In this document: positions 9,623 through 52,815 of the stretch, one piece after another
Layout of the letters: each line of letters starts with the position of its first letter
Numbering within the stretch: the stretch's first letter is position 1
Origin: a virus
Taxonomy: Duplodnaviria > Heunggongvirae > Uroviricota > Caudoviricetes
Length of the DNA: 64,000 nucleotides
Direction: 5' to 3' (one strand)
Virus record (IMG/VR): IMGVR_UViG_2851955134_000009
Notes under the pieces: generated by a model
The model's input: only the letters and a program-made list of their open reading frames with translations
Told to the model about the DNA's origin: nothing
Database searches by the model: none
Position numbers and translations under genes: made by a program

Positions 9623-9648
9623 GAGATAAACGTTGGTTTGGGGGAAGG
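9623..9648. other. invertase crossover site (hix/gix-like), Mu-like cassette, invertase-proximal
   Basis: gagataaacgttggtttgggggaagg; core AAACCAACGTTT is shared with the sites at 11224, 50937 and 52762, and is inverted relative to 11224. Confidence 0.5.
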
Positions 9649-10099
9649 CTCTGCATTGCCTGTTGGTGTACCGGTTCCATGGCCCACCGCCACACCGCCA
9701 GCAGGCTGGTTACAGTGCAACGGAGCTACGTTCACCAAAGAACAATATCCTGTTCTGGCCAGAGTCTACCCGACCCTCCGTCTTCCCGATTTGCGCGGTG
9801 AGTTTATCCGTGGATGGGACGGTGGTCGCAAGGTTGATACCGGGCGTGCGCTACTTTCATTTCAGGAAGGGACTATCGTATCCGGTTTTGATGATAATGA
9901 TACCGGAGATATCAGTTCGCTCGGCTCTACACAATACGGATTTGGTGACGCTTTAACCTCTAATCAACTGGGGGTCATAAATGGCAAAAAGTGGATATTT
10001 GATGCATCCTCTAAAGGTGCACAAAGATATGACTGGTGGGCTTATGTATCAGCTCGCCCCCGCAATATCGCATTTAACTATATCGTGAGGGCGGCGTGA
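9638..10099 (+). CDS. alternative tail-fibre C-terminal (tip) segment, promoterless inverted cassette
   Basis: Begins with GEGSALPVGVPVPWPTATPPAGW, the same junction peptide found inside the fibre gene at 10720-12489; opposite orientation; ends NIAFNYIVRAA. Confidence 0.6.
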   Translation: MGEGSALPVGVPVPWPTATPPAGWLQCNGATFTKEQYPVLARVYPTLRLPDLRGEFIRGWDGGRKVDTGRALLSFQEGTIVSGFDDNDTGDISSLGSTQYGFGDALTSNQLGVINGKKWIFDASSKGAQRYDWWAYVSARPRNIAFNYIVRAA

Positions 10100-10105
10100 T
10101 ACCGT

Positions 10106-10720
10106 TCAGCCGGCAAGCGCCAGTGGCGCTTCCGGCCAGCTGATTTCAGGTGCCTTGCTGATATCCAGTGCGTTCAGCTCGTCGATATAATCCAGCACGG
10201 CGTTCAGTTTTGCCGTTTCTTCTGGTTTCAGACTGCGACCTGCCCGCAGTTTGAGGTTGATGAGGTCGATGGACTTCATCGCCTGATCCACCCGTTCCTG
10301 GCGTTGCAGTCTGGCAACCTCCAGCTCTGCGGCTCGCTGCCGTTCAGTATCGGTTACCCACGCCTCACCGTTCCAGGTATCCCATGGCGTGGCCGGCTGT
10401 TTTGTGGTGGTGTCCGCCGGGTAATCACCCGGCTGGGTAATCTGAACGGGAGTACCGTTCTCCGTGCTGTATACCGTCTCGCCGCGGTGATCAGGCACAT
10501 GTTCCCACCCGTTCAGCGTGGCAGTCCGGCAAACCACGTAACCCGAAATTGCCTCCGGCGGTGCATCGGCGCACGAATGTGCCGGAGTACCCACCCCAAG
10601 GGCGAGATACTCCACAGAGGATGAGGTGTATTCCCGGGTTTCCTCGTCATAGTGATATACAGTGATATCGCCCGCTACAGTGGCGATACCGTTTTCATCC
10701 AGAACTGCAGTGTTACTCAT
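10106..10720 (-). CDS. tail fibre assembly protein (chaperone)
   Basis: 204 aa immediately downstream of the fibre gene; homologous to the 200-aa protein at 51671-52273. Confidence 0.75.
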   Translation of the reverse strand: MSNTAVLDENGIATVAGDITVYHYDEETREYTSSSVEYLALGVGTPAHSCADAPPEAISGYVVCRTATLNGWEHVPDHRGETVYSTENGTPVQITQPGDYPADTTTKQPATPWDTWNGEAWVTDTERQRAAELEVARLQRQERVDQAMKSIDLINLKLRAGRSLKPEETAKLNAVLDYIDELNALDISKAPEISWPEAPLALAG

Positions 10721-12489
10721 TAAACTGCCCTCACAATGTAATTAAGTGCAATGCTACGGGGTCTGACAGTGATACCCTTCGCATACCCGCTTCTGATAGA
10801 GGTCAGAATAGTAGCCTGCATACCATTGTCTGACATTGCCACGACAGGATCGCTGAATGTTGTCCCGTCCGGCATTTTAAAGCTGCCCTCACGAAGGTCT
10901 GTAATGGAATCTTCATTGTTGAATCCCATGCCGACTATCCCCGAGGTTCCCGTAGTGTCCTGGTTATAATAATCCAGCATTGCTGTTCTTAACAGCGTTG
11001 CCCCTTGTGCGGACAGCAACTTACGTCCTGTATCAACTTTGCGCCCGTCGTCCCATCCACGGATAAACTCACCGCGCAAATCGGGAAGACGGAGGGTCGG
11101 GTAGGCTCTGGCCAGAACAGGATATTGTTCTTTTGTAAAGGCGCGCCCGTCGCACTTTAACCAGCCTGCTGGCGGTGTGGCGGTGGGCCACGGAACAGGC
11201 ACACCAACGGGTAGCGCCGAGCCTTCTCCTAAACCAAGGTAATTGAGGACATCTTTTATACTGCCCTTAGCGATAATAGCGCGACCAATAGCTGTAAGGG
11301 TTGCCAGCGCTGCGCGGTCTGCTCCGGTAAAATAAGGCAACCGATCTGCTGCAGTGGCAAGTCCTGCCAGAGCAGTGAGCGTGGCATCTGCCGGTTGTTT
11401 TCCGTTTGCCAGATCGTATGCAGCCTTGACCGCTTTCGGTGTGGCGGCCAGTATTTCAGACGTGCTGTTGATGGCACTGCTCAGTTGTACGGTGCCTTTT
11501 GCCGTCAGCGAGGCCGCAGGCACTCCCGTTATCTGACTCCACGGGTGAGTGTGGCTGGCAGGCGCCTTGCCGGCTGCCAGGTCGTATGCAGCCTTGACCG
11601 CTTTCGGTGTGGCGGCCAGCGTTTCAGACGTGCTGTTGATGGCACTGCTCAGTTGTACGATCCCTTTACGGGTCGTTGTTGCATCCTGGGCTGTGTATTT
11701 TCCCCGGGCCAGATCATACGCGATTTTCACAGCCTTCGGCGTGGCAGCCTCAGTTTCTGATTGACTGTCCGTGGCGCTGCTCAGTTGTACGGTGCCTTTT
11801 GCCGTCAGTGAAGCCGCAGGCACTCCCGTTATCTGACTCCACGGGTGAGTGTGGCTGGCAGGCGCCTTGCCGGCTGCCAGGTCGTATGCAGCCTTGACCG
11901 CTTTCGGTGTGGCGGCCAGCGTTTCAGACGTGCTGTTGATGGCACTGCTCAGTTGTACGATCCCTTTACGGGTCGTTGTTGCATCCTGGGCTGTGTATTT
12001 TCCCCGGGCCAGATCATACGCGATTTTCACAGCCTTCGGCGTGGCAGCCTCAGTTTCTGATTGACTGTCCGTGGCGCTGCTCAGTTGTACGGTGCCTTTT
12101 GCCGTCAGTGAAGCCGCAGGCACTCCCGTTATCTGACTCCACGGGTGAGTGTGGCTGGCAGGCGCCTTGCCGGCTGCCAGGTCGTATGCAGCCTTGACCG
12201 CTTTTGGTGTGGCGGCCAGCGTTTCAGAGGTGCTGTTGGTGGCACTGCTCAGTTGGGTGAACCCCTTAGCTGTCAGTGTCGCGTCCGGGTGGTTACGGGA
12301 ACGTACGTGTTCAGCCAGTGACTGTGCGGCTTCCTCCGTTTTCTTCTTCAGCCATTTCGTCCTGTTTGCCAGTTGCCGGGGGGCTCGATTTGATATCCCG
12401 TCTGCACCACCCAGAACCGGATCTGATGTCTCCAGTTGATAGATATTTTCTTCCCACTTTTCTGTTTCATTCAGGTTTCCCATAATCAA
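10720..12489 (-). CDS. tail fibre protein with internal tandem repeats
   Basis: 589 aa; Ala/Thr-rich repeats of about 100 aa; C-terminal tip segment begins at the crossover junction (LGLGEGSALPVGVPVPWP). Confidence 0.8.
   Translation of the reverse strand: MIMGNLNETEKWEENIYQLETSDPVLGGADGISNRAPRQLANRTKWLKKKTEEAAQSLAEHVRSRNHPDATLTAKGFTQLSSATNSTSETLAATPKAVKAAYDLAAGKAPASHTHPWSQITGVPAASLTAKGTVQLSSATDSQSETEAATPKAVKIAYDLARGKYTAQDATTTRKGIVQLSSAINSTSETLAATPKAVKAAYDLAAGKAPASHTHPWSQITGVPAASLTAKGTVQLSSATDSQSETEAATPKAVKIAYDLARGKYTAQDATTTRKGIVQLSSAINSTSETLAATPKAVKAAYDLAAGKAPASHTHPWSQITGVPAASLTAKGTVQLSSAINSTSEILAATPKAVKAAYDLANGKQPADATLTALAGLATAADRLPYFTGADRAALATLTAIGRAIIAKGSIKDVLNYLGLGEGSALPVGVPVPWPTATPPAGWLKCDGRAFTKEQYPVLARAYPTLRLPDLRGEFIRGWDDGRKVDTGRKLLSAQGATLLRTAMLDYYNQDTTGTSGIVGMGFNNEDSITDLREGSFKMPDGTTFSDPVVAMSDNGMQATILTSIRSGYAKGITVRPRSIALNYIVRAV
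11224..11249. other. invertase crossover site (hix/gix-like) inside the Mu-like fibre gene
   Basis: ttctcctaaaccaaggtaattgagga, at the constant/variable junction of the fibre protein. Confidence 0.5.
11521..12120. repeat. two identical 300-bp tandem copies within the tail-fibre gene (diverged partial copies flank)
   Basis: Sequence from 11521 onward is identical to that from 11821 onward; a third, diverged copy starts at 12121; in frame (100 aa per unit). Confidence 0.8.
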
Positions 12490-13076
12490 CTGCTCCCGTG
12501 GTTATAACTGCCATCATGGATGGCGGTATTGTTATAGCGAATGGCCACAGACTGATACTCCAGGCTGGCCAGATGGCAGCGGGCCGGTGCAAATGCAGCC
12601 AGCGTCTGACGCAGCATCGCGGCCTGATCGTTAGTAATGGGCTGTTTCAGAATAACGCGATAAACTGCCCAGGCGGCTGCATCTCCATGAACAAACAGTC
12701 CGTTATAGCTGCGATTGCCGTCGTAACTGAGACGACCTGTGCCTTCAATCAGATCCACTTCACCAAAGCCAAAACGGCGGATAACTTCCCGGATTGACCA
12801 CGGCGTCCCTTTATACCGGTGCAGTTCGATGGCTGCTTTTATAAGCATGCGGCGAACATCGTCCGATTCCGCCAGCTCCCAGCCATCGCCAGACAGTGAG
12901 AACTGCTCGCCCAGCCATGGCAGCGCGGAACTGTCGACGATATCGACGAGAAAGACCATCAGTACGCTCAGGTCGATGTTATCCAGCCGTCCTGCCAGTC
13001 TTCCCAGCGTCCTGAGACTGATATCACCCTCAAGCGGTGGCGGGAGTTGTAATGGCTCAGTCATCAGACACTCCAC
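12486..13076 (-). CDS. baseplate protein (P2 gpI-like)
   Basis: 196 aa between baseplate J and the tail fibre gene, as in P2-type baseplate modules. Confidence 0.65.
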   Translation of the reverse strand: MECLMTEPLQLPPPLEGDISLRTLGRLAGRLDNIDLSVLMVFLVDIVDSSALPWLGEQFSLSGDGWELAESDDVRRMLIKAAIELHRYKGTPWSIREVIRRFGFGEVDLIEGTGRLSYDGNRSYNGLFVHGDAAAWAVYRVILKQPITNDQAAMLRQTLAAFAPARCHLASLEYQSVAIRYNNTAIHDGSYNHGSS

Positions 13077-14160
13077 TCATGTTAAGAGTGATTGCCGTAC
13101 AGTTTGCCCATTCGTTTTCTGCCACCACCCGCAGTGCCGGTGTCACCAGTTCAACCTGGTACACCCCGGAAACGGACAATGCACTGATAATCTGGCTGGG
13201 GACAATATCACGCCCCAGCGTGGCGGCACGTGATGCCACCCAGTTCTGTATGGCGCTGTTAGCGGCATCTTTTACAGACCTGGCATCCTGATCACGATAG
13301 ATCGTAATCCTGGCTTCAATGGTGTAATCCACCTTCACTGGTGTTTTAGCCCGCACTGTATCAGTGAGTGGCCTGACTTTCTCATCAGAGCAGAAACTCT
13401 CTACCAGCGTGAGAACACCGCCGTCCGGCAGACCGGTACTGAGCAGCGGATACAGATCTACGGTCCCGGGAACCGGGGAAAGCACAGCAACATCGACAAT
13501 GTTGGGATGGGCCTGCATGGCATGAAAGCGGTATGCGCCACGGCTTCCGGCATTGGTGAATGACTCCGGGGCCAGCCTGATACGCTCCCGGAGCCTGTCA
13601 TCGTCTTCCTGTTCTGAACCGCCGGAACTGGCCGTCAGATTGCTCACCAGCAGGTCGACGTTATCAATCTCATCGAGTAACTGACTGACCTGCGCAGGTT
13701 GCCAGCCGTTACCAGCGGTACCGGGTTCGGTACAGGTGGACGTGACATTGACCAGCAGCAATCCGGCCTTCAGTACCACATCTGTATCGGTGGCAAAAAT
13801 AACGCTGTCGGAAGCGCTGACGCGGGTGCCTGCCGGGATCAGCACATCAATGGCCAGTGCCTCATCTACGGAGAACTGGAGCGTGGTGGTGGCAGGCTGC
13901 GCGGCAAGACGGTATACACCGACCAGTTCACCGAGGTAATCAATCATCGGCTCACGGGCAAAGGCGACCAGATTCTGCTTTGCTGCCTCCTGTACCGCAA
14001 CCCTGACCAGCATTTCGCGATAGGCCCACAGATCAATCAGCAGACGTTCTGCCTGTGCCGGGTACAGCGTTTTGCCGGTATCCGCTTCATACTTCGCAAT
14101 CATTTCTGCCGTGATTTTGTCGGCATCGCGTTCAATAAAATCGGGTTCTGTCAGCGCCAT
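13057..14160 (-). CDS. baseplate protein J-like
   Basis: 367 aa, position between gpW-like and gpI-like genes. Confidence 0.75.
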   Translation of the reverse strand: MALTEPDFIERDADKITAEMIAKYEADTGKTLYPAQAERLLIDLWAYREMLVRVAVQEAAKQNLVAFAREPMIDYLGELVGVYRLAAQPATTTLQFSVDEALAIDVLIPAGTRVSASDSVIFATDTDVVLKAGLLLVNVTSTCTEPGTAGNGWQPAQVSQLLDEIDNVDLLVSNLTASSGGSEQEDDDRLRERIRLAPESFTNAGSRGAYRFHAMQAHPNIVDVAVLSPVPGTVDLYPLLSTGLPDGGVLTLVESFCSDEKVRPLTDTVRAKTPVKVDYTIEARITIYRDQDARSVKDAANSAIQNWVASRAATLGRDIVPSQIISALSVSGVYQVELVTPALRVVAENEWANCTAITLNMSGVSDD

Positions 14161-14498
14161 AGCAGCTCCTGAGTCCGGGTCTGTCCGTCTGAGCCTTTCC
14201 AGCTCACCCGGAGCGTAAGATGTTCGCCGTCGACGGCGGGTTTAACTGACATAAGCTGGCAGCGGGGCTCCCAGCGCCGGATGGCATCGACGGATTCGCG
14301 CACCACATGCGGAATGGCCCGGTCTACAGGCCAGTCGATATAAAGATGCAGATTGCTGCCGAACTCCGGGCGATGCGGGTCGCTGCCGCGGGGAGTCCGC
14401 AGGATAATTTGAATCGCCTGCCGGATATCATCCAGCCCCCGGACAATTTCGCCGGGAGCCTGCAGGGCTGGTTGCCAGAATACTGAGGTCGTTTTCAT
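14151..14498 (-). CDS. baseplate wedge protein (gpW/gp25-like)
   Basis: 115 aa, conserved position before J. Confidence 0.7.
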   Translation of the reverse strand: MKTTSVFWQPALQAPGEIVRGLDDIRQAIQIILRTPRGSDPHRPEFGSNLHLYIDWPVDRAIPHVVRESVDAIRRWEPRCQLMSVKPAVDGEHLTLRVSWKGSDGQTRTQELLWR

Positions 14499-14552
14499 GG
14501 GGGCAGTATTGCCCCCGTGCGGGAACGCTGATATTAAAGGCGTTTAAGAAGC

Positions 14553-15149
14553 TCAGTGGGAGTGGTGGCTGGAGTTTTCGCCATCAGACAGCATACTGCC
14601 CGTGGCATGGGCATTCCCTTTAATCTCGATATTGCCATGGATGGTCGCGGTAACACCTTTACCACCAGAACCCGCCATGCCTCCTTCGTAAATCAGCTTT
14701 CCCCTGACACGCAGATCTCCGGTAAGTTCGGTTTCCGGTGCGTCAATCGTGGCTTTCTGTGTTTTCAATACCACATCAGCACCACACTCAATGACAATAT
14801 GCTCAATGCCGCCCCGGATGGTCAGAGTGTGCGTCTTCCGGTTGTAGCTGTACTCTGCACCATCAGCAAACCGGGTTCCCCGGATATTTTTGTCACTGAA
14901 CGGTGGTTTATCGACGTCTGAATACACCGCGCCCAGAATAACACCATCCTCGCCGTTGGCATCGAGCAGCACCTCAACCTGCTCCCCCACGTCAGGGAGC
15001 CAGTAATCTTTGTTATCCTGGGTATTGCGCTGCAGCACGTTAAGCCAGTTTGTGCGCAGGTTATCGCATTCAGGCAGACGAACGCGGGCCTGAACCCTGT
15101 CGGCATCAACGGCACTGACCGTACCGACCTGACGAGTGACACCAGTCAT
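14553..15149 (-). CDS. baseplate assembly/spike protein (gpV-like)
   Basis: 198 aa, position preceding gpW-like gene. Confidence 0.7.
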   Translation of the reverse strand: MTGVTRQVGTVSAVDADRVQARVRLPECDNLRTNWLNVLQRNTQDNKDYWLPDVGEQVEVLLDANGEDGVILGAVYSDVDKPPFSDKNIRGTRFADGAEYSYNRKTHTLTIRGGIEHIVIECGADVVLKTQKATIDAPETELTGDLRVRGKLIYEGGMAGSGGKGVTATIHGNIEIKGNAHATGSMLSDGENSSHHSH

Positions 15150-16300
15150 TTTTTCTTCTCCTTAATCACCGTCGATGTACTGCCATCCGGGTGATAAACC
15201 GTGAGTTTCTGAGTTTTTTGTTTTTTCCCTCTTGTGACTGGCCCCCGTGCCACTTCCAGCTCTGTGGTGTAGCCGCTGTTACGGTCAAACGCATGGCGGG
15301 CAGTGGTTATGAGCCATGGCCCGGATAACTGCCCAAAACCCACCAGTTCAATTTTGTTGCCTGCTGTCAGTTGAGGTGTTCCCGTCAGCGTCAGGGAGCC
15401 GTTCTGCTGGTATTCGTTATGTCTGGCCAGTGCTGAATCCGCTTTAATCCGGGCACTGTCCGGGTCGCTGACGCGGCTGTTAACTTTAAGTGAGTCAGCG
15501 CTGGTAACCTTACCACCTTTGAGCTTTTTGTCGCTTTCACGGGTACCACCATCAGCTTCGTAGACGATCAGTTTTTTACTGCTGCTTTTCTGGTGTTTTA
15601 CCTTTGCAGATTTATAGACCCGGTTGATGGTGTCACGCAGGGAAAAGCGGGCCACATCCTGCGGTTTTAACTGCCTGACCGGCTCCTGACTGCGCAGTGT
15701 GGCCAGATGAGAAAAAATCAGCTGGTCACTGACCACTTTCACTGCATAACCATACTCGCTGGCCAGCCGGCGCAGAAAACCCACGTCGGTTTCAGCATAC
15801 TGGGTCACCCGGTCGATTCTGATGGACTCAATGCTGCCCACCAGTTTCAGTCGGTGCTTTCTGGCAATCCGCCCCGCAACAGCTGCCAGCGTGGTGTTCT
15901 CAAAACCACGACTGGTTTTAGTCCGCAGAGCACTGTTAACCGAGGTGGCCACCCCACGGATAGAAACAACGGAAGCGGGCGAACTCACTTCGATCTCGTC
16001 TATAGAGAACGTACCGCAGGACAGCAGCTTCTCGCCCTGATAGCCCATTTTCAGCGTCAGCGTGTCACCCTTGCCCGGATACCACTTATCCAGCCAGCGG
16101 CCATCGGTGTCGTCCAGCTCCACCTCAATGGTATCGGACTCATTTTTGATGTTATCGCTCCAGGTCACACGGGTGACATAAGGCGCGATATCAGAGGTGA
16201 TGTTTTTCTGCAGATACCACAGAGTGAACACCGGTGTCAGCACATCGCTGACGCTGGTTAACGCTGATGTGACTTGCGCAGTGCTGTTTATCTCAGCCAT
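15146..16300 (-). CDS. tail protein D-like
   Basis: 384 aa following the X-like and U-like genes, as in P2 T-U-D order. Confidence 0.7.
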   Translation of the reverse strand: MAEINSTAQVTSALTSVSDVLTPVFTLWYLQKNITSDIAPYVTRVTWSDNIKNESDTIEVELDDTDGRWLDKWYPGKGDTLTLKMGYQGEKLLSCGTFSIDEIEVSSPASVVSIRGVATSVNSALRTKTSRGFENTTLAAVAGRIARKHRLKLVGSIESIRIDRVTQYAETDVGFLRRLASEYGYAVKVVSDQLIFSHLATLRSQEPVRQLKPQDVARFSLRDTINRVYKSAKVKHQKSSSKKLIVYEADGGTRESDKKLKGGKVTSADSLKVNSRVSDPDSARIKADSALARHNEYQQNGSLTLTGTPQLTAGNKIELVGFGQLSGPWLITTARHAFDRNSGYTTELEVARGPVTRGKKQKTQKLTVYHPDGSTSTVIKEKKK

Positions 16301-16503
16301 GGGGCAATATCCTCTTCTGTACGGGCTTCTTCAGCCTCAATCACCGGGATCAGTAACAACAGCCCGGAGGGCAGCACCGGCGTGATGGCCACGTGCGGAT
16401 TGGCGGCAATAATCCGGGGATAGCCCAGCGGGTCACCGTAGTACTGCCATGCCAGCGAATCCCAGCGCTCTCCGTCACGGGTAACATGTTCAAGAAACAT
16501 CAC
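16288..16503 (-). CDS. tail protein X-like (LysM-like small tail protein)
   Basis: 71 aa between the U-like and D-like genes. Confidence 0.55.
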   Translation of the reverse strand: MMFLEHVTRDGERWDSLAWQYYGDPLGYPRIIAANPHVAITPVLPSGLLLLIPVIEAEEARTEEDIAPWLR

Positions 16504-17384
16504 ACACTCCTCGTCAGTATTCTGGCGGCCATTGCACTTAATCCCGGAGACATGCGGTTGAATGCTGTGCTGGCGGCGTTAAGCTGCCCGGAAACGGTAT
16601 CCAGAGCACCTGCAATATTTCTTTTGTCCACACCACTCAGCGCAGACTGTGCCTGCTGTACATACGTGGCTGCTTCGCTGGCTGTTCTGGCCAGACTGAT
16701 GGCATCGGGCATGGATTCAGAGAGTGCGTTAAACGCCGGAACACTTTTCCCCAGAGCCCCGGAGATATTACCCAGTCCGCTCATCAGCCCCGGCACACGG
16801 GTCAGTGCGACAACGGGGTTATCCTTCATTTTCTGTGTCACCCGAACGGCGCTGATAGTGGTCTGGAGTACAGACTGCGCCTGTTTCGCATAGTTGACGC
16901 CGTTGCGGATGAACTGCGCCACCCCTGAAGGTGAAGGAATGGCACCGGAGACCGCCCCGACACCCGGGAGCTTCGTGCGTATTGCCGGTGGTTGCAGAGG
17001 ATTTTTCGGATCACCGGTGTATTCCCGGAGAGACACGGTGGCACTGACAGCCAGCACGTTACCGGTGCTGTCTGTCTGCTCGCTGGTTGCGGTCACATCG
17101 GTAATCACGAACCAGCCACGATAGTCACCGTTGCCGAAGACCAGCGCCAGTGCCTGATGGGCTTTCATGGTTGTTCGCAGTCTCGCCAGCTCCACATCGG
17201 GTGCACAATAATGCTGATGGAAGACCAGACTTATCTGGATTTCGTCCAGCCTGTCGCCGACGAACTGCAGGCCAGGCTTACCCCCGATGCGGGCATGCTC
17301 CGCATAATCGACGCCGAACGTGGCCTCGAAGCCGTCCCAGTAGGTAATCAGATCAAACTCAATATCACCCAGTACGGCAAACAT
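16500..17384 (-). CDS. tail protein with gpU-like N-terminal domain and Ala/Ser-rich extension
   Basis: N-terminus MFAVLGDIEFDL resembles the P2-like U protein in this window (MMMVLGLYVFML); follows the tape measure gene. Confidence 0.55.
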   Translation of the reverse strand: MFAVLGDIEFDLITYWDGFEATFGVDYAEHARIGGKPGLQFVGDRLDEIQISLVFHQHYCAPDVELARLRTTMKAHQALALVFGNGDYRGWFVITDVTATSEQTDSTGNVLAVSATVSLREYTGDPKNPLQPPAIRTKLPGVGAVSGAIPSPSGVAQFIRNGVNYAKQAQSVLQTTISAVRVTQKMKDNPVVALTRVPGLMSGLGNISGALGKSVPAFNALSESMPDAISLARTASEAATYVQQAQSALSGVDKRNIAGALDTVSGQLNAASTAFNRMSPGLSAMAARILTRSV

Positions 17385-41551: not shown

Positions 41552-41553
41552 TA

Positions 41554-41823: not shown

Positions 41824-41850
41824 TCAGCACAACCGGAGAAATCATAAAAT

Positions 41851-42942: not shown

Positions 42943-42951
42943 GGGCGCGGC

Positions 42952-43248: not shown

Positions 43249-43262
43249 CCGGGAGGCATTCA

Positions 43263-45032: not shown

Positions 45033-45402
45033 AGGGCCGGAACTCCTGGTGGAACTGGCACAGCATACCTCTGAGACCGTTCGCGAGATTATTGATATTG
45101 AGCCCGCAATTGCCGACCAGATTGGTCAGGCCGTCGCGAACCGCATGATGCAGGTCTGGGGCGGGCAAAACGTTTATTTCCCGATGGGCATGGTATGGAA
45201 GGTCAGTCAGCGCGACCGGGAAATCTTCAGGGAGTTTAACGGACGTAACCACCATGAACTGGCCCGCAAATTTGGTGTTTCGCTTCAGTGGGTCTACAGC
45301 GTGGTTAAGCGGGTAAGAAAAGAAGAACTGGATCGGATGCAGGGCAGGTTGTTTGATGAAGATCTGCCAGAGGAGACGAAAGACGTTAACAAATCCAGAT
45401 AA
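45004..45402 (+). CDS. Mor/C-family transcriptional activator
   Basis: 132 aa; C-terminal HTH (HELARKFGVSLQWVYSVVKR) typical of Mor/C. Confidence 0.65.
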   Translation: MSDLNQFRSKGPELLVELAQHTSETVREIIDIEPAIADQIGQAVANRMMQVWGGQNVYFPMGMVWKVSQRDREIFREFNGRNHHELARKFGVSLQWVYSVVKRVRKEELDRMQGRLFDEDLPEETKDVNKSR

Positions 45403-45447
45403 TTCCTGCTTGTTAAAGTCCTTTCAAAAATCTCCTTATTGTATAAA

Positions 45448-45479
45448 AGCACGGTAGACCCCTTACCGTGCTTTTTTTA
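45448..45479 (+). terminator. rho-independent terminator after the Mor-like gene
   Basis: Stem agcacggta/taccgtgct with a 7-nt loop followed by a T7 run. Confidence 0.6.
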
Positions 45480-45516
45480 TGCTCTCTCTTTAGTATTCAG
45501 GATGCAGGGAGAAAAT

Positions 45517-46149
45517 ATGTTTGACGTTTCGTTGTTAAATCTGCCATGGGCAACACTGGTGACCCTGACCAGTGGCTATATTGGGTATTTTATTGCGAAT
45601 GTGGGACTGAAGGATCACCACAAGCCCATTGAGGTGACTTTTTCTTCGCTGATTTTTGGCCTGACAGCAATGATGGCTTACCAGGCTGTTATGTGGGCAG
45701 GTCTGAATGCCTGGCTGGCAACACCACCAGCACTTCTGTGTGCCGTTACATGCGGTGCGTGGTGGCGCAGGTACGGTCGCAAATGGATGTACAGATTACT
45801 GTGGAATAATGATATTTCATGGTCTGACGATACCAGCTCAGCATGGCAGGCAATGTTTGATCAAACAGGCTTCAGCGTTACCGAGGTCAGAGTGATTCTT
45901 CGCGATGGTTCCGGTATGATGTCACGGCTGCCAGGGAACTTTGAAGAGTGGCCTAACGGTCCGTTTACCCTGGGGAATAAAGGCGATATGGTTCTTTACG
46001 TCACGCACAGCAGCCCTTCAGGCAGTAACGAATGGGAAGAGTATAAAGGCGTGGTTGATAAGTACTGGGGAGCTCTGGCAACCTATATTCCAGCAGATCA
46101 GATTGCCAGAGTGGAGATCAGGCGCGTTCGTGCAACGAACGATGAATGA
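45517..46149 (+). CDS. membrane protein of unknown function at the element terminus
   Basis: Start placed at MFDVSLLNL; three to four N-terminal TM segments and a C-terminal soluble domain; isolated between a terminator and the element end. Confidence 0.4.
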   Translation: MFDVSLLNLPWATLVTLTSGYIGYFIANVGLKDHHKPIEVTFSSLIFGLTAMMAYQAVMWAGLNAWLATPPALLCAVTCGAWWRRYGRKWMYRLLWNNDISWSDDTSSAWQAMFDQTGFSVTEVRVILRDGSGMMSRLPGNFEEWPNGPFTLGNKGDMVLYVTHSSPSGSNEWEEYKGVVDKYWGALATYIPADQIARVEIRRVRATNDE

Positions 46150-46466
46150 TGTTTATTTTTTCCCTGGGGCAGGGGCTGCCGGCATAGTGGTTTTATTGGC
46201 AGAGGAAGACGATTCTCCTTTTCTACCGGAATCGCGCTCGAACGTCACGATGTGCTTGCTTTTGGGCTTTTCTGAGTAATCCAGGCTATCATGCTTATTG
46301 TTTTGAGTAGTCATTGGAATCATCCTTTTTGTTGCGGGTCATGTTTCAGCAAACTCGATTCTAAGTTGCCAGGAAGGATGATTTCAATGCCCGACTTATC
46401 TATCGTATAGCGGAAAAGAATTTCAGTTCTGTTCACCAGAACCCATGTTAACCCACTCCAATTCGT

Positions 46467-46510
46467 TATTTATCTCACGGATCCCCCTTCATTTATCTCA
46501 TGTCTGATCA
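46467..46510. repeat. Mu-like element terminal repeat, right-hand copy in window coordinates (putative transposase-binding sites)
   Basis: Reverse complement reads TGATCAGACATGAGATAAATG...GTGAGATAAATAA, matching the end at 8916. Confidence 0.55.
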
Positions 46511-46516
46511 ATTATT
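46511..46516. repeat. ATTATT direct repeat, right copy (putative target-site duplication)
   Basis: Identical to 8910-8915. Confidence 0.6.
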
Positions 46517-46535
46517 GCGTGTCAGGAGCGAAACA

Positions 46536-46967
46536 GTGAACAAACCACAATCCCTGCGCCACGCCCTCAATAAAGCGGTGCCTTATGTCCGCAATAACCC
46601 GGACAAACTGCATCTGTTTGTGGATAACGGTTCGCTGGTTGCCACGGGGGCCAGCTCCATGTCATGGGAGTACCGCTACACCCTGAACGTGGTGATTGAG
46701 GATTTCAGCGGCGACCAGAATCTGCTGATGGCCCCGGTTTTGCTGTGGCTGCGTGATAACCAGCCCGATGCCATCAATAACCCGGCGTTACGGGAAAAGC
46801 TATTCACCTTTGAGGTGGATATTCTGCGCAACGATGTCTGTGATATCAGCCTCAACCTGCAACTGACGGAGCGTGTGCTGGTCAGCACTGACGGCAGTGT
46901 GTCGAGCGTTGAAGCTATAGCGGAACCTGATGAACCTGAAGAAATGTGGACGGTGAAACGTGGCTGA
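46536..46967 (+). CDS. R: tail completion protein (P2 gpR-like)
   Basis: GTG start at 46536 with an AGGAG RBS; the upstream ATG of the track ORF (46500) lies inside the Mu-like terminus. Confidence 0.65.
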   Translation: MNKPQSLRHALNKAVPYVRNNPDKLHLFVDNGSLVATGASSMSWEYRYTLNVVIEDFSGDQNLLMAPVLLWLRDNQPDAINNPALREKLFTFEVDILRNDVCDISLNLQLTERVLVSTDGSVSSVEAIAEPDEPEEMWTVKRG

Positions 46968-47406
46968 ACTGCAGAAAGTGGACGACTGGCTGAGTGCCTT
47001 GCTGGCGAATCTGGAGCCAGCCGCAAGAAGCCGCATGATGCGCCAGCTGGCGCAGGAACTACGCCGGACACAGCAGCAAAATATCAGAATGCAGCGCAAT
47101 CCAGATGGCAGCAGTTATGAACCGCGACGGGTAACAGCACGCAGTAAAAAAGGCCGTATCAAACGTCAGATGTTTGCAAAGCTGCGCACCACAAAATACC
47201 TGAAAACTTCCGCCAGCGCCGACTCTGCCAGCGTGCAGTTTGAAGGCAAGGTGCAGCGCATTGCCCGCGTTCACCATTACGGCCTGCGAGATCGCGTCAG
47301 TCGTAAGGGACCGGAGGTGCGTTACGCAGAGCGTCGCCTTCTGGGTGTAAATGATGATGTTGAGGCAATGACCCGCGACATGATTCTGCAATGGCTGGCG
47401 GGGTGA
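46960..47406 (+). CDS. S: tail completion protein (P2 gpS-like)
   Basis: 148 aa overlapping the R stop, as in P2. Confidence 0.7.
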   Translation: MAELQKVDDWLSALLANLEPAARSRMMRQLAQELRRTQQQNIRMQRNPDGSSYEPRRVTARSKKGRIKRQMFAKLRTTKYLKTSASADSASVQFEGKVQRIARVHHYGLRDRVSRKGPEVRYAERRLLGVNDDVEAMTRDMILQWLAG

Positions 47407-47474
47407 TCTTTGTATCAGCACTGATACAAGTTGCAGCACTGCCGCCTTTCTTCCCCTGATGGCAACCTTTCCCT

Positions 47475-48053
47475 ATGAACGCACAATTAACCGAAATCAT
47501 GCGCCTTATCACCAACCTGATCCGCACAGGGGTAGTCACCGAAGTGGACAGGGAAAACTGGCTTTGCCGGGTGAAAACGGGCGAGCTTGAAACCAACTGG
47601 ATCAGCTGGCTGACGCTGCGTGCCGGGAATGCCCGTACATGGTGGCGACCATCGGAAGGTGAGCAGGTGGTGCTGCTGAGTCTGGGCGGCAATCTGGAAA
47701 CCGCCTTTGCGCTGCCCGCTGTCTATTCGAATCAGTTCGCACCACCGTCGACGTCGGCGGACGCCTGCGTGACAGAACATCCTGACGGTGGCTGGTTTGA
47801 ATACGAACCCGCCACCGGGCGCTGGTATGTCAGGGGCATCAAATCAATGGTCATTGAGGCTGCTGACAACATCACCATGAAAACCAGTGAGTTTGTACTG
47901 GAGGCTGACCGCACGCGCATTAACAGCGAAGTGGTGATCAATGGTGGCGTTACCCAGGGCGGCGGAGCGATGAGTTCTAACGGGATCGTGGTTGATGCGC
48001 ATCAGCATACTGGCGTCCTGAAAGGCGGCGATACAACCGGAGGCCCGGTATGA
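47475..48053 (+). CDS. V: baseplate assembly/spike protein (P2 gpV-like)
   Basis: 192 aa, first gene of the V-W-J-I-H-G cluster. Confidence 0.8.
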   Translation: MNAQLTEIMRLITNLIRTGVVTEVDRENWLCRVKTGELETNWISWLTLRAGNARTWWRPSEGEQVVLLSLGGNLETAFALPAVYSNQFAPPSTSADACVTEHPDGGWFEYEPATGRWYVRGIKSMVIEAADNITMKTSEFVLEADRTRINSEVVINGGVTQGGGAMSSNGIVVDAHQHTGVLKGGDTTGGPV

Positions 48054-48409
48054 CGCTTTATAGCGGGATGAACAATACCAGCGGCAAAGTCATTACTGAT
48101 ATTGATCATCTGCGCCAGTCGGTGCGGGACATTCTGCTGACACCGCAGGGTAGCCGTATTGCCCGCCGGGAATATGGTTCCCTGCTGTCGGCACTGATAG
48201 ATCAGCCACAAAATCCGGCATTACGCCTGCAGGTCATGTCGGCAGTGTATGTGGCGCTGAGTCGCTGGGAGCCACGGTTGACGCTGGATTCCATCACCAT
48301 CAACAGCAATTTTGACGGTTCAATGGTGGTGGAGCTGACCGGGCGGCGGAATAACGGTGTGCCTGTGTCCCTTTCCGTATCAACAGGAGCAGAGAATGGC
48401 AGTGATTGA
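48050..48409 (+). CDS. W: baseplate wedge protein (P2 gpW-like)
   Basis: 119 aa. Confidence 0.8.
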   Translation: MTLYSGMNNTSGKVITDIDHLRQSVRDILLTPQGSRIARREYGSLLSALIDQPQNPALRLQVMSAVYVALSRWEPRLTLDSITINSNFDGSMVVELTGRRNNGVPVSLSVSTGAENGSD

Positions 48410-49304
48410 CCTTTCGCAGTTGCCTGCACCGCAGATTGTGGATGTGCCGGACTTTGAGACGCTGCTTGCCGAACGCAAGGCAGAATTTGTGGCGCTTCAT
48501 CCGAAAGATGAGCAGGAAGCAGTGATCCGCACGCTGGAACTGGAATCTGAACCCGCCACTAAATTGTTGCAGGAGAACGCTTACCGTGAGTTGCTTCTGC
48601 GCCAGCGCATTAACGAAGCCGCGCAGGCGGTGATGGTGGCTTACGCGATGGGCGGCGATCTTGACCAGCTCGCTGCCAACTACAACGTGACACGCCTGAC
48701 GGTGACGCCTGCTGATAATGATGCTGTGCCGCCCGTTGCAGCTGTGATGGAAAGCGATGAAGCGTTGCGCCTGCGTGTGCCTGCAGCCTTTGAAGGGCTT
48801 TCTGTTGCGGGGCCAACTGCAGCTTATGAATTTCATGCCCGAAGCGCCGACGGTCGGGTGGCGGATGCCAGTGCAACCAGCCCGGCACCTGCAGAGGTGG
48901 TGCTGACTGTCCTTAGCCGCGAAGGCGATGGAACTGCAGAAAAAGACCTGCTGGACGTGGTGGAAAAAGCTCTGAACAGTGAGAACGTCCGCCCGGTGGC
49001 TGACCGTCTTACGGTTCGCAGCGCAGAAATCATCCCGTATCGCGTGGAAGCCACCATTTTTCTCTATCCTGGACCGGAAGCAGAGCCGGTAATGGCAGCG
49101 GCAAAAGCCAGCCTGCAGAAGTACATCGCCAGTCAGACGCGTCTTGGTCGGGATATTCGCCGTAGCGCCATCTTTGCCGCCCTGCATGTTGAGGGGGTGC
49201 AGCGTGTGGAGCTGGCTTCTCCTCTGGCGGATGTGGTCCTGAACAAAACACAGGCGGCATCATGTACGCAGTGGAGCGTAACCAACGGAGGAACGGATGA
49301 ATAG
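48396..49304 (+). CDS. J: baseplate protein (P2 gpJ-like)
   Basis: Start at MAVIDL (48396), overlapping the W stop. Confidence 0.8.
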   Translation: MAVIDLSQLPAPQIVDVPDFETLLAERKAEFVALHPKDEQEAVIRTLELESEPATKLLQENAYRELLLRQRINEAAQAVMVAYAMGGDLDQLAANYNVTRLTVTPADNDAVPPVAAVMESDEALRLRVPAAFEGLSVAGPTAAYEFHARSADGRVADASATSPAPAEVVLTVLSREGDGTAEKDLLDVVEKALNSENVRPVADRLTVRSAEIIPYRVEATIFLYPGPEAEPVMAAAKASLQKYIASQTRLGRDIRRSAIFAALHVEGVQRVELASPLADVVLNKTQAASCTQWSVTNGGTDE

Positions 49305-49902
49305 TCTGCTGCCACCGGGTTCAACACCACTGGAGCGCCGACTGGCGCAAACCTGCAGCGGGATTTCTGATCTGCAGGTGCCGCTTCGTGATTTGTGGAA
49401 TCCGGCAACCTGTCCGGTCAGTTTCCTGCCTTATCTCGCCTGGGCGTTCTCTGTGGATCGCTGGGACGAGGGCTGGACAGAAAGCGTCAAGCGCCAGGTG
49501 GTGAAGGATGCTTTTTATATTCATCAGCATAAAGGGACCACCAGTGCCGTGCGGCGGGTGGTGGAGCCGTTCGGATTCCTGATCCGCATTATTGAGTGGT
49601 GGCAGACCGGAGAAACACCGGGCACGTTTCGCCTGGATATCGGCGTGCAGGACCAGGGCATCACTGAAGATACCTATCTGGAACTTGAGCGACTGATAAG
49701 CGATGCCAAACCATGTAGCCGCCACATGATCGGCATGTCCATCAATCTGCAGACCAGCGGCCCGCATTGGGTGGGAGCCGCCAGCTATCTTGGCGAAGAA
49801 ATCACGATCTATCCGTATATCAACGAAACGATTATTTCCGGTGGCACCGCGCATGAAGGCGGGGCGGTCCATGTTATTGACACAATGAGAGTGAATCCAT
49901 GA
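49297..49902 (+). CDS. I: baseplate protein (P2 gpI-like)
   Basis: 201 aa. Confidence 0.75.
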   Translation: MNSLLPPGSTPLERRLAQTCSGISDLQVPLRDLWNPATCPVSFLPYLAWAFSVDRWDEGWTESVKRQVVKDAFYIHQHKGTTSAVRRVVEPFGFLIRIIEWWQTGETPGTFRLDIGVQDQGITEDTYLELERLISDAKPCSRHMIGMSINLQTSGPHWVGAASYLGEEITIYPYINETIISGGTAHEGGAVHVIDTMRVNP

Positions 49903-51257
49903 GCACAAAATTTTATACCCTGCTGACGGATATTGGCGCGGCGAAACTTGCCAGCGCCGCCGCGCTCGGTGTGCCGCTAAAAATTACCCATATGGCGGTG
50001 GGCGATGGCGGTGGAGTATTGCCAACGCCGGACGCAAAGCAGACGGCACTGGTAAATGAGAAACGCCGGGCTGCGCTGAATATGCTTTATATCGACCCGC
50101 AGAACAGCAGCCAGATTATTGCCGAACAGGTGATCCCTGAAAACGAGGGCGGTTGGTGGATACGTGAAGTGGGCCTGTTTGATGAGTCAGGGGCATTGAT
50201 TGCCGTGGGCAACTGCCCGGAAAGCTATAAGCCGCAACTGGCTGAAGGTAGCGGGCGCACTCAGACCGTGCGCATGGTGCTGATTACCAGCAGCACGGAC
50301 AATATCACCCTGAAAATCGACCCTGCTGTAGTGCTGGCAACCCGCAAGTATGTGGATGACAAGGCACTGGAGCTGAAGGTGTACGCGGATGATCAGATGG
50401 CAAAACATCTTGCCGCACCGGACCCGCATTCACAGTACGCGCCAAAAGCCAGCCCGACATTTACCGGAACCCCCAAAGCGCCAACGCCAGCGGCGGGGAA
50501 TAATACCACGCAGGTTGCGACCACTGCGTTTGTACAGGCGGCACTGACGGCCCTTATTAATGGTGCGCCAGCCACGCTGGACACGCTGAAAGAAATAGCC
50601 GCAGCCATTAACAATGATCCGAATTTCAGTACCACCATTAACAATGCGCTGGCACTAAAAGCACCGTTGTCGAGTCCGGCACTCACCGGAACGCCAACAG
50701 CCCCCACGGCGGCGCAGTCGGTCAACAATACACAGATTGCCACTACGGCTTTTGTGAAATCGGCGATTGCAGGAATGGTGGGTTCTGCACCTGCTGCACT
50801 GGATACACTGAACGAACTGGCGGCGGCACTGGGGAATGATCCGAACTTTGCCACGACAATGCTTAATGCGCTGGCAGGTAAACAACCGCTGGACAATACG
50901 CTTACCAATTTGAGTGGAAAGGATGTAGCTGGTCTTCTCACATACCTTGGTTTAAGAGCAAGCGGGCAGTACACCGATAATTTGTTATTTACAGGTCCTG
51001 ATGGTCTTAAGATTCAGGTGTTTCGCCGGACGCTCGCAAATTTGACTACTGTCGGTGTAGTAAATTCTGTGCCAGTGACTTTCCCTGTCCCGTTCCCTGT
51101 TAATTGCTGGGGCGTTTTTTCTACCAAATTAACATGGGTTCAGATAACTAACTCATGCGAGTGGGTAAGCAATACAGGATTTACCGCTCAGGTCATGATG
51201 AATATTGCTGTAAATACAAACACCTCAGACGCTATGTTTTTAGCTATAGGATATTAA
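49899..51257 (+). CDS. H: tail fibre protein (P2 gpH-like)
   Basis: 452 aa; N-terminal part conserved with the Mu-like fibre, C-terminal tip differs beyond the junction peptide (LLTYLGL). Confidence 0.8.
   Translation: MSTKFYTLLTDIGAAKLASAAALGVPLKITHMAVGDGGGVLPTPDAKQTALVNEKRRAALNMLYIDPQNSSQIIAEQVIPENEGGWWIREVGLFDESGALIAVGNCPESYKPQLAEGSGRTQTVRMVLITSSTDNITLKIDPAVVLATRKYVDDKALELKVYADDQMAKHLAAPDPHSQYAPKASPTFTGTPKAPTPAAGNNTTQVATTAFVQAALTALINGAPATLDTLKEIAAAINNDPNFSTTINNALALKAPLSSPALTGTPTAPTAAQSVNNTQIATTAFVKSAIAGMVGSAPAALDTLNELAAALGNDPNFATTMLNALAGKQPLDNTLTNLSGKDVAGLLTYLGLRASGQYTDNLLFTGPDGLKIQVFRRTLANLTTVGVVNSVPVTFPVPFPVNCWGVFSTKLTWVQITNSCEWVSNTGFTAQVMMNIAVNTNTSDAMFLAIGY
50937..50962. other. candidate invertase crossover site inside P2-like H (diverged)
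   Basis: Reverse complement cttgctcttaaaccaaggtatgtgag shares the AAACCAAGG core with the other three sites but is less conserved. Confidence 0.35.
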
Positions 51258-51258
51258 T

Positions 51259-51699
51259 ATGAATCGTTTTGTGTTCAGTCCATCTGAGTCCCGTTTTTAT
51301 GCCATCGAGTGGCAGGCTGATTATGTTGATAATAATTGTTGGCCACATGATGCCATTAACGTTAGTGACAGCATTTATTATGAGTTTTCCGGCACTCCCC
51401 CTACAGGTAAGCAACTTATAACTTTAAATAACATGCCAGCATGGGGTGATATTCCTCCACCTACACGAGAAGAATTAATTGTCGCTGCTGATGTGGAGAA
51501 GCAAAAAAGAATAGATTTAGCCAATGATTACATGAACGGTAAGCAATGGCCTGGTAAAGCAGCTATTGGTCGTCTGAAAGGTGAGGAACTGGCACAATAT
51601 AATTTGTGGCTGGATTATCTGGACGCACTGGAGCTGGTCGATACCGCCAGTGCGCCAGATATTGAATGGCCTACGCCTCCGGCAGTTCAGGCCAGATGA
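51259..51699 (+). CDS. G: tail fibre assembly protein (P2 gpG-like)
   Basis: 146 aa immediately downstream of H. Confidence 0.7.
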   Translation: MNRFVFSPSESRFYAIEWQADYVDNNCWPHDAINVSDSIYYEFSGTPPTGKQLITLNNMPAWGDIPPPTREELIVAADVEKQKRIDLANDYMNGKQWPGKAAIGRLKGEELAQYNLWLDYLDALELVDTASAPDIEWPTPPAVQAR

Positions 51700-52273
51700 C
51701 ATCTGGCGCGGTGCTGGTATCAGTTGCCGTCACCGCGTCAATGTAATCCAGTACAGCGTTAAGGCTGGTTGTTTCTGCCTGCGTCAGTTTACGTCCGGCC
51801 TGCAATTTCAGCTGAATCAGACTGATTGAAGCCATTGCAGTATCAATCAGTGACTGGCGCTGTGCTTCTGCTGCATCTACTGCGGCGCTATGCTGTGCTT
51901 CGGTATCCGTCACCCATTTCTCACCATCCCATTTATCGTATGGCGTTAACGGGGCGATAGTGGTTGTATTATCAGGGTAATCACCCGGAGCTGTGATTTC
52001 TTTTGATTCTCCTGTTTCGGTGCTAAAGACGATTTCACCGCGATGGTCTGGCACATATTCCCATGAGTTAAAATCTACAGATCGGCAGATTGCATAACCA
52101 GCTTTGTATGTGCCAGGGGCATCTAAACAGGAATATGCAGGGATACCGACACCAACGGCAAGATATTCAGTTGATGTGGAAATATATTCCCGTGTTTCGC
52201 CATCATAGTTATAGACGGTAATATTCCCCGCCTTTGTAGCAATAAACTCGCTATTTAATACAGCGTTATCCAT
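51671..52273 (-). CDS. alternative tail fibre assembly protein (inverted cassette)
   Basis: 200 aa, convergent with G; roughly half of its residues match the Mu-like chaperone at 10106-10720 by visual alignment. Confidence 0.7.
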   Translation of the reverse strand: MDNAVLNSEFIATKAGNITVYNYDGETREYISTSTEYLAVGVGIPAYSCLDAPGTYKAGYAICRSVDFNSWEYVPDHRGEIVFSTETGESKEITAPGDYPDNTTTIAPLTPYDKWDGEKWVTDTEAQHSAAVDAAEAQRQSLIDTAMASISLIQLKLQAGRKLTQAETTSLNAVLDYIDAVTATDTSTAPDVIWPELPEA

Positions 52274-52815
52274 TATGCAGCCCTCACGATATAGTTAAAT
52301 GCAATATTCCGTGGACGGGTTTCATTTATCCCATATGCTGTTGTTCTCTGATTCCCGACAAAATATCCATTTGGATTAGAAGATACAGAATAATCATCAA
52401 AATCAAGTGGGCTATCAGCACCCGGCGTCAGGCTTGCAATATATCCTCTTCCCATAACTTCTGATGCTGGTATTTCTTTTGTACGATAATCACTAACTCT
52501 GAAGAGCTGCCCTTGGTGGGTGTGTGATTCCACTCCTCCATTCTGAAGACTTAGCAAGGCACGTACAGCATCAATACCACGCCCGTCATCCCAGCCACGA
52601 ATAAACTCACCACGTAAATCAGGCAATTTATTTGTCGGATAAGCCTTTGCCAGTTCCGGGTATTCTTCAGCAGAAAAAGCGGCACCGTTGCATTTCAGCC
52701 AGCCTGTTGGCGGAGTGGCTGAAGGCCACGGAACAGGCACCCCAACCGGTAATGCAGAGCCTTCTCCCAAACCAACGTTTATGAAAATGCAGAGATAACG
52801 GCTAACTGGCATCAT
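52273..52815 (-). CDS. alternative tail-fibre C-terminal (tip) segment, promoterless in current orientation
   Basis: Contains GLGEGSALPVGVPVPWPSATPPTGW junction peptide and NIAFNYIVRAA C-terminus; homologous to the Mu-like fibre tips. Confidence 0.6.
   Translation of the reverse strand: MMPVSRYLCIFINVGLGEGSALPVGVPVPWPSATPPTGWLKCNGAAFSAEEYPELAKAYPTNKLPDLRGEFIRGWDDGRGIDAVRALLSLQNGGVESHTHQGQLFRVSDYRTKEIPASEVMGRGYIASLTPGADSPLDFDDYSVSSNPNGYFVGNQRTTAYGINETRPRNIAFNYIVRAA
52762..52787. other. invertase crossover site (hix/gix-like) adjacent to the P2-like invertase
   Basis: ttctcccaaaccaacgtttatgaaaa, 26-bp imperfect dyad. Confidence 0.5.

Follow-up and report, generated by a model that had tools for sequence, protein, structure and literature searches.

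Organisation of the nested prophages

The DNA analysed here is a 64,000-nt stretch of the IMG/VR virus record IMGVR_UViG_2851955134_000009 (the window), in which two co-resident prophages, one transposable and Mu-like and the other P2-like, each carry a tail-fibre switch cassette with an invertase of the Gin family. The presence of a transposable and a P2-like prophage had been proposed in an earlier note on this sequence, and our results agreed with it, the Mu-like prophage being nested inside the P2-like one. The P2-like prophage was found in two parts flanking the Mu-like element, as revealed by the map of open reading frames (ORFs) and by annotated Escherichia coli genomes. According to the ORF layout, the left part (1..8915) contained the portal and terminase genes on the - strand, followed by the genes for the scaffold, capsid, small terminase, head completion, holin and lysozyme, lysB and a truncated lysC. 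The right part (46511..60698, + strand), defined by its ORFs and by colinearity, contained R, S, V, W, J, I, H and G, the switch cassette, the gene of invertase 2, and FI, FII, E, T, U, D and ogr. Both the ORF order and the colinear annotated prophages reproduced the gene order of P2 (Peduoviridae; Q P; O N M L X Y K lysABC R S V W J I H G ... FI FII E T U D ogr). The gene ybjL (60934-62619, - strand) came after ogr, and the ogr-ybjL junction was the same in the window, in strain B771 and in strain bR_120_Kylling.

The Mu-like prophage occupied about 37.6 kb (8916..46510, - strand), and its early genes were located on the + strand (37030-46279) and its late genes, read from 34135 to 8994, on the - strand. 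It had the features of a Mu-like transposable phage, namely a DDE transposase (38605-40374, + strand; rve domain, phrog_310) with an AAA+ protein of the MuB type (40358-41551, + strand; AAA_22, phrog_296), TG...CA termini with repeated motifs and a target duplication, and many insertion positions. The element started with TGATGCGCC and ended with CTGATCA, and GATAAATG motifs were repeated at both ends. The target-site duplication ATTAT(T), which was 5 or 6 bp long since one extra base matched, was present as a left copy (8910..8915) and a right copy (46511..46516). When 8916-46516 was removed in silico, the resulting sequence aligned over its full length, as one piece and without gaps, to 1,012 E. 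coli genomes, and the alignment spanned the lysozyme gene, lysB, lysC and the tail-completion genes annotated as 'phage tail protein' and 'virion morphogenesis protein'. This precise restoration of the P2 sequence revealed that the Mu-like element was inserted into the 3' end of lysC, and it showed, with the termini and the two copies of the duplication, that the element ends and the duplication were intact, as had been claimed. In the proposed course of events, an element of the EC958 Phi2/PhiKM type transposed into lysC of a P2-like prophage integrated beside ybjL. The segment 21600-46510 was 94% identical to Escherichia phage PhiKM over 92% of the span. The same element, recognised by an exact copy of invertase 1 beside its fibre cassette, was located at 10 different insertion points in other genomes, with further positions in other comparisons, and the hosts of those insertions included another P2-like prophage and a lambdoid prophage. 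Neither the left nor the right junction of the present insertion was found in any of the complete E. coli genomes compared.

The insertion cut the lysC ORF short (8682-8918, truncated at 8915-8918), so that it now ended in VDMII and a stop codon. On the other side, a new ORF (46500-46967) started from an ATG at 46500 within the left end of the Mu-like element and extended into the next downstream P2 gene. Since the late operon was interrupted by 37.6 kb, the P2-like prophage has probably lost its viability as a phage.

Nesting of the Mu-like element in other prophages was observed repeatedly. It was found beside a P2-like terminase gene (locus L010, 8573-9186), within a lambdoid terminase gene (locus L015, 8573-8649) and, in strain B771, directly upstream of P2 ogr at ybjL (locus L003, 6266-6443). 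These repeated insertions may reflect a target preference or plain tolerance of prophage DNA. The tape-measure gene of the element in the window (17384-20335) contained a 261-nt tandem duplication at 17985-18506, with copies 96% identical and a length that kept the reading frame.

Crossover sites of the two cassettes

Exactly four 26-bp crossover sites of the Gin/Cin/Pin type were identified in the window, on strands - + - +, each within 2 bp of where the earlier note had placed four related sites. In the Mu-like cassette, site A (9621..9646, - strand; reverse complement TTCCCCCAAACC AA CGTTTATCTCTC) lay on the invertase side, and site B (11224..11249, + strand; TTCTCCTAAACC AA GGTAATTGAGGA) on the side of the constant part of the fibre. 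In the P2-like cassette, site C (50935..50960, - strand; reverse complement TGCTCTTAAACC AA GGTATGTGAGAA) lay on the constant-part side, and site D (52762..52787, + strand; TTCTCCCAAACC AA CGTTTATGAAAA) on the invertase side. Sites A and C thus had one orientation and sites B and D the other, which was also as described before. The core pattern AAACCAASGT occurred 4 times in 64 kb, against 0.25 expected, and none of 100 shuffled sequences reached 4.

The AA/TT core was common to all four sites. The inner, tip-side half-sites matched the family consensus TTnTCnnAAACC, as do those of Mu gixL and gixR, and the outer half-sites read CGTTTAT... where they adjoined an invertase gene and GGTA(A/T)... 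where they lay within a fibre gene. The codon phase was also identical at all four sites, which encoded (Y L / N V) G L in the direction of the fibre, with the staggered cut in the same codon. Site A was identical, letter for letter, to the published EC958 Phi2_3prime site GAGAGATAAACGTTGGTTTGGGGGAA, and the reverse complement of site B was likewise identical to the EC958 Phi2_5prime site TCCTCAATTACCTTGGTTTAGGAGAA (PMC4134206). Each cassette therefore had the anatomy of a DNA inversion system, with an inverted pair of 26-bp sites (A/B and C/D), an identical core and one site adjoining an invertase gene. An identical central dinucleotide was described as a requirement for recombination by Iida & Hiestand-Nauer (1987), as cited in PMC4134206. 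Judged by their sequences, all four sites are mutually compatible, having a common central dinucleotide, inverted pairs available between the cassettes and a reading frame that is kept.

The two invertases and the presumed enhancers

Invertase 1 (8994..9566, - strand, 190 aa) and invertase 2 (52843..53409, + strand, 188 aa) were assigned to the Gin family of serine recombinases by their translations and their Pfam Resolvase and HTH_7 domains. As the earlier note had stated, the two enzymes were similar: they were 77% identical to each other, and 77% (invertase 1) and 75% (invertase 2) identical to Mu Gin, and invertase 2 was 87% identical to a PinE. The top match among solved structures was Gin for both proteins (for invertase 1, 4m6f, E=1.7e-93). 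Both started with MLIGY(I/V)RVSTNDQ, which included the catalytic Ser9, and both had the resolvase domain, the active-site serine and the C-terminal helix-turn-helix of small serine recombinases. Exact protein matches were present in 1,481 collection blocks for invertase 1 and in 9,140 for invertase 2. Both genes pointed away from their own cassette, and their start codons were 54-55 nt from sites A and D, respectively. Since the AA/TT core and the codon phase were common to the sites and the enzymes were 77% identical, recombination between the two cassettes is chemically allowed.

The first ~145 nt of the two invertase genes were 82% identical and aligned with the 5' end of Mu gin. In the window, the 5' end of the invertase-1 gene with its leader (9429..9573, - strand) was 82% complementary to 52836-52980. 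The Fis-dependent enhancer of gin and cin lies within the 5' part of the invertase gene, and by homology this region is presumed to contain the enhancer in both genes of the window. In the proposed mechanism, each invertase of ~190 aa would recombine two inverted 26-bp sites, presumably aided by Fis at the enhancer in its own gene. With one site inside the fibre gene and the other beside the invertase gene, the constant part of the fibre would be fused to one of two receptor-binding tips.

Fibre genes, alternative tips and chaperones

In both cassettes, alternative in-frame C-terminal tips and chaperone genes were located inside the invertible segment. The Mu-like tail-fibre gene (10720..12489, - strand) encoded a protein with six Phage_fiber_2 repeats and a Collar domain, and it comprised the constant part (11250-12489) and the expressed tip B (10720-11236). 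The constant part contained three 300-nt tandem repeats (11398-12297), with 82-90% identity to the reference copy. In relatives the fibre was 587, 387 or about 314 aa long, which points to variation in the number of repeats and, with it, in the length of the fibre. The Mu-like cassette had two tips and one chaperone. The silent alternative tip A (9638..10099, + strand), which had a Collar domain and was joined to the constant part in three genomes with a flipped cassette, was without a co-oriented chaperone gene of its own, and the sole tail-fibre assembly chaperone of the cassette was a protein of 204 aa (10106..10720, - strand; Pfam Caudo_TAP). In the flipped cassette of the three other genomes, the chaperone gene was convergent to the fibre gene rather than co-oriented with it. 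Tips A and B both ended in RPR(N/S)IA(F/L)NYIVRA, and from this common ending the two tips may share the single chaperone. The copies of the Mu-like cassette in ST131 had one extra tip.

The fibre gene H of the P2-like prophage (49899..51257, + strand) comprised a constant part extending to 50934 and the expressed tip C (50961-51257), which had a gp53-like C-terminus. It was followed by chaperone G for tip C (51259..51699, + strand, 146 aa; Pfam Caudo_TAP). On the opposite strand were chaperone G' for the silent tip (51671..52273, - strand, 200 aa; Pfam Caudo_TAP), annotated as tfaE in relatives, and the silent alternative tip D itself (52273..52761, - strand), which was of the Collar type and was 75-76% identical to tips A and B over its first ~150 nt.

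Native arrangement and flipping within each cassette

At first sight the locus looked scrambled: the Mu-like element had divergent early (+) and late (-) genes, and its invertase gene abutted the P2 lysis genes. These features would fit a window that is itself the product of an earlier recombination between the cassettes, that is, an already rearranged isomer. The comparison with relatives revealed a different picture. The segment 8912-12600 was colinear, at 99.9-100% identity, with five further Mu-like prophages of E. coli, a colinearity that ran from the right end of the element through the cassette and the baseplate genes, and the element was also colinear with PhiKM over 92% of 21600-46510. 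The segment 46511-53500 was colinear at 99.8% with intact P2-like prophages, and precise deletion of the element, with its ends and duplication intact, restored the P2 sequence. Hybrid junctions were not found in the window, where both cassettes were colinear with their relatives. An already rearranged window was therefore rejected on colinearity, and its probability is close to nil.

Similarity between the two cassettes was limited to the sites and to the first ~150 nt of tips A, B and D (75-76% identity), and around site C nothing beyond the 26-bp site was common with the Mu-like cassette. With both cassettes colinear with relatives and so little similarity between them, there was no sign of recent exchange. 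Both cassettes were in their native arrangement, as had been supposed.

Flipping within each cassette was evident from other assemblies. Those with an identical invertase 1 had either a fibre of 587 aa followed by the chaperone or a fibre of 570 aa with a convergent chaperone, and those with an identical invertase 2 had a P2 fibre with either the Collar tip or the gp53-like tip. Both orientations were thus present for each cassette type. For the EC958 Phi2 segment, both orientations were observed directly in PacBio reads (PMC4134206).

Predicted products of recombination between the cassettes

The effects of recombination between the cassettes were derived from the geometry of the sites. Two inverted pairs join the prophages, A x D (centres at 9633/4 and 52774/5, 43.1 kb) and B x C (centres at 11236/7 and 50947/8, 39.7 kb). 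The direct pairs, A-C (41.3 kb) and B-D (41.5 kb), would give deletions, which are disfavoured by this enzyme family. Since the cassettes of the window face each other, the products of inversion would be invertase 1-cassette-P2 fibre and Mu-like fibre-cassette-invertase 2. After A x D, each fibre would keep its own tip set, and only the flanking invertase genes would be exchanged between the cassettes. After B x C, the constant part of the P2 fibre would carry the Mu-like tip B, that of the Mu-like fibre would carry the P2 tip C, and both predicted fusions were complete ORFs, in frame.

In either single inversion, the right end of the Mu-like element with invertase 1 (8916-9620) would stay in place and the rest of the element would be turned. 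The ends of the element would then no longer be inverted repeats, so the Mu-like phage should be crippled until reversal. The host should be indifferent, because the whole rearranged stretch is prophage DNA. If B x C were followed by A x D, both backbones would be restored with the cassette interiors exchanged, and two successive inversions would be the only route to a viable swap. The exchange of fibre tips proposed in the earlier note can therefore be kept for B x C, which would exchange the tips in frame, but not for A x D, and a viable swap would take two inversions instead of one.

A clean precedent and the route of exchange

A set of 5,426 complete E. coli genomes was surveyed for products of this kind. 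In strain FDAARGOS_1287 (NZ_CP070071.1; loci L005, 27166-30331, and L006, 25687-28868), a P2-like prophage lay next to an e14-like one, and a stretch of 45.3 kb was inverted between their cassettes, with the breakpoints falling precisely at 26-bp crossover sites. At the first junction, the P2-like prophage, from int to the fibre gene H and tfaE, met head-on with chaperone G, tip C, the constant part of stfP, which is a fibre gene of the e14 type, and the entire late region of the e14-like prophage. At the second junction, 45.3 kb further on, the P2 tail genes ogr...FI and the P2 invertase were followed by an e14-type cassette and pinE. Undoing this one inversion gave two complete tandem prophages. 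The cassette between the two fibre constant parts was 99.7% identical to 50944-52787 of the window over all 1,844 nt, up to both sites, and the other cassette was only 90-96% similar and only in parts. All four sites had the AA core. At the exchange point, a gp53-like tip beside the P2 invertase faced an stfP constant part beside a Collar tip, and the 26-bp site alone was common to the two. The event in FDAARGOS_1287 was therefore site-specific and not due to homologous recombination.

This exchange point also bears on the possibility that the exchange of cassettes depends on RecA, through homologous recombination where the 5' parts of the tips resemble each other, rather than on the invertases. 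Tips A, B and D were indeed similar over about 150-230 nt beside the sites (I1 86%, I3 75%, D3 76%), and a case that would suit this route was found in strain bR_120_Kylling (NZ_CP182374.1; loci L029, 22639-26399, and L028, 10779-13906). A search for junctions with a cassette between two invertase genes revealed an inversion of ~94 kb in this strain, bounded by one cassette in the P2-like prophage at ybjL and another in a prophage of the P2 type located between pflA and pflB. These cassettes had 1,055 nt in common at 98%, so homologous recombination was equally possible, and the strain was downgraded as a second clean case. In the window, however, 75-76% identity over about 150 nt, and only 26 bp at site C, is far too little for this route, and in FDAARGOS_1287 the site alone was shared. 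Homologous recombination as the route of exchange is thus highly improbable. Strain B771 was considered as a product of the A x D type, with a Mu-like cassette and invertase upstream of P2 ogr, and was rejected: its invertase was of the Mu-like type and P2 FI to D were absent. The layout of B771 is more simply explained by an independent insertion or deletion.

Rarity of events between cassettes

Several results weighed against recombination between the cassettes of the window. Among the surveyed genomes, exact B x C chimeras (the P2 constant part with tip B, or the Mu-like constant part with tip C) gave no full match (0/5,426). In no genome (0/5,426) did the constant part of the Mu-like fibre lie about 2.5 kb or less from the P2 invertase and the sheath gene FI, and in none (0/5,426) did the Mu-like and the P2 fibre constant parts face each other from opposite sides of a cassette. 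The arrangement of FDAARGOS_1287 was itself found in only 1 of the 5,426 genomes, which indicated that fixed inversions between cassettes are very rare, and the other candidate inversion, in bR_120_Kylling, had the long shared sequence described above. The outer half-sites of B and C (..ATTACC and ..CATACC) deviated from the consensus, which may make B x C a poor pair. The Hin/Gin invertasome normally needs a defined synapse on one supercoiled domain, so sites 40 kb apart should recombine far less than sites 1.6-1.9 kb apart. A genome-wide inversion screen of enteropathogenic E. coli (EPEC), with a Mu prophage and two P2-like cassettes, reported events within cassettes only (PMC4272514), and the inversion search in EC958 likewise reported only flips within cassettes (PMC4134206), both on the basis of deep sequencing.

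These observations could mean that the two cassettes are functionally insulated, with each invertase using its own sites only and the common core and frame reflecting the ancestry of the tips. The lack of Mu-like/P2-like hybrids, the two reports of flips within cassettes only, and the sampled contexts of the invertases, which were parental in 10 of 10 cases for invertase 1 and in 10 of 10 for invertase 2, would all agree with insulation. So would the topological filter of Hin/Gin inversion, in which efficiency depends on local synapsis with the enhancer. Set against insulation are the site-precise exchange between two prophages 45 kb apart in FDAARGOS_1287 and the mutual complementation of Gin, Cin, Hin and Pin, which occurs at similar or lower identity than that between invertases 1 and 2. 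Assemblies also show the majority isomer only, so that rare isomers would escape. An invertase can moreover act in trans, as was shown experimentally for PinQ of prophage Qin, which inverts the e14 segment (PMC12529663), and as was proposed for the EC958 prophages by Forde et al. 2014 (PMC4134206). On balance, strict insulation is unlikely.

The window most probably contains two ordinary fibre switches of the Gin/Cin/Pin type, which work independently and are in their native state, and between which recombination is chemically allowed but expected to be rare. By analogy, from the 77% identity of the enzymes, the cross-complementation within the family and the precedent of FDAARGOS_1287, we infer that either invertase could act on the sites of the other cassette and that synapsis could occur over 40 kb; events between the cassettes could then take place in the source strain. 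The inversion of roughly 40 kb proposed in the earlier note was right in its sizes, and it was consistent with the compatible sites and with the precedent, but it found no counterpart among the Mu-like/P2-like combinations of the survey. In the same way, its description of the locus as primed for structural variation held in so far as the mechanism allows such variation and a natural precedent covers the same distance, but nothing showed such events at this locus.

Exchange of tip modules at the sites

Modules of a tip with its chaperone recurred at 99-100% identity in hundreds of genomes, and the homology of these modules started 1-12 nt from the central dinucleotide. Tip B and its chaperone were also found behind other fibre constant parts, and on a phage-like plasmid of 94 kb they followed a fibre gene of 3.5 kb. 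Tip C, together with chaperone G, was likewise found behind e14-type fibres. Recurrent modules ending at the sites imply that the crossover sites are seams of module exchange, as Sandmeier 1994 proposed, according to its citation in PMC4134206. On the plasmid, pGF4-B (NZ_CP172219.1, 94 kb; locus L002, 998-6692), tip B and its chaperone were 99.5% identical to those of the window and lay behind an unrelated fibre gene, in a cassette with three tips and an invertase. This case illustrates that the sharing of modules crosses replicon types.

Comparison with known systems

The components of the locus have been described before, and one of its two host-range switches, that of EC958 Phi2, has been published; the nested configuration of these known systems is unusual. 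The Mu-like cassette resembled that of EC958 Phi2 (PMC4134206) in its identical sites, in the type of fibre (Phage_fiber_2 repeats with a Collar tip) and in the same adjacent invertase. It differed in that the EC958/ST131 segment is 2,067 bp long with an extra tip (cf. strain 81009), whereas that of the window measured 1,629 bp and had two tips and a single chaperone. Furthermore, the sites of the other EC958 prophages have a TC core and are incompatible with Phi2, whereas the P2-like neighbour in the window also had the TT/AA core.

The order of elements was also that of the G segment of Mu with Gin, that is, the constant part, a site, a tip with its chaperone, an inverted chaperone with its tip, a site and an invertase gene reading away. 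The likeness to Mu extended to the invertases (75-77% identity), to the 26-bp sites with a 2-bp core and to the conserved 5' end of the invertase gene, at the position that the enhancer has in gin. Unlike the sites of the window, however, the gix sites of Mu have a TC/GA rather than a TT/AA core and are perfect copies rather than sites with differing outer half-sites. The element of the window, of the PhiKM/Phi2 type, also differed from Mu in its divergent early and late genes and its P2-like-looking tail genes.

The C segment of P1 with Cin and the Min system of p15B were similar to the locus in having several compatible sites and more than two arrangements, with sites that form the boundaries of tip modules. 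In p15B, all sites of Min are in one 3.5-kb region of one replicon and are served by one enzyme, whereas the window had two enzymes, and its sites were divided between two different prophages at a distance of 40 kb. That a prophage invertase can act on sites belonging to a different element of its cell is known from PinQ and e14 and from Fin of Fels-2, which acts on the Salmonella H segment (Kutsukake 2006, as cited in PMC4272514). In these two cases, unlike the one considered here, the target's own segment is inverted, and there is no site-to-site recombination between the elements. In FDAARGOS_1287, a closely related P2-like prophage recombined in cis with the cassette of a different prophage through AA/TT cores. 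Its partner was e14-like instead of Mu-like, and its cassettes were in tandem, giving one cassette between two fibres and another between two invertases. In ST131 isolates, inversions and a 'translocation' of fibre segments were reported among P88-like, BP-4795-like and BcepMu-like prophages (preprint 10.1101/2022.05.07.487787). A published account of invertase-mediated recombination between the cassettes of different prophages was not found in a search that left most of the older subscription literature outside.

Implications for prophage variation

The value of the locus lies in its compatible sites from two unrelated prophages on one 43-kb stretch, given that FDAARGOS_1287 shows recombination across prophages to be possible. 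In a broader sense, recombination by invertases between the cassettes of different prophages might be a general and barely documented source of prophage-bounded inversions in E. coli, which through two inversions would move receptor-binding cassettes between unrelated phages; we consider this generalisation possible but doubtful. If it were true, the locus would be a natural test bed, with four sites of the same core and two enzymes over 40 kb in cis, in prophage DNA whose rearrangement would leave the host unaffected. Cultures would then contain rare A/D and B/C isomers side by side, and the Mu-like phage could leave with P2-like tips. If events between the cassettes are measurable, some prophage-bounded inversions and some annotations of 'hybrid' prophages would be explained. 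The events would also matter for assembly and prophage-calling pipelines, in which such junctions are taken for errors or chimeric phages. They would also provide a concrete mechanism for the long-standing view of crossover sites as the seams of tip movement between phage families.

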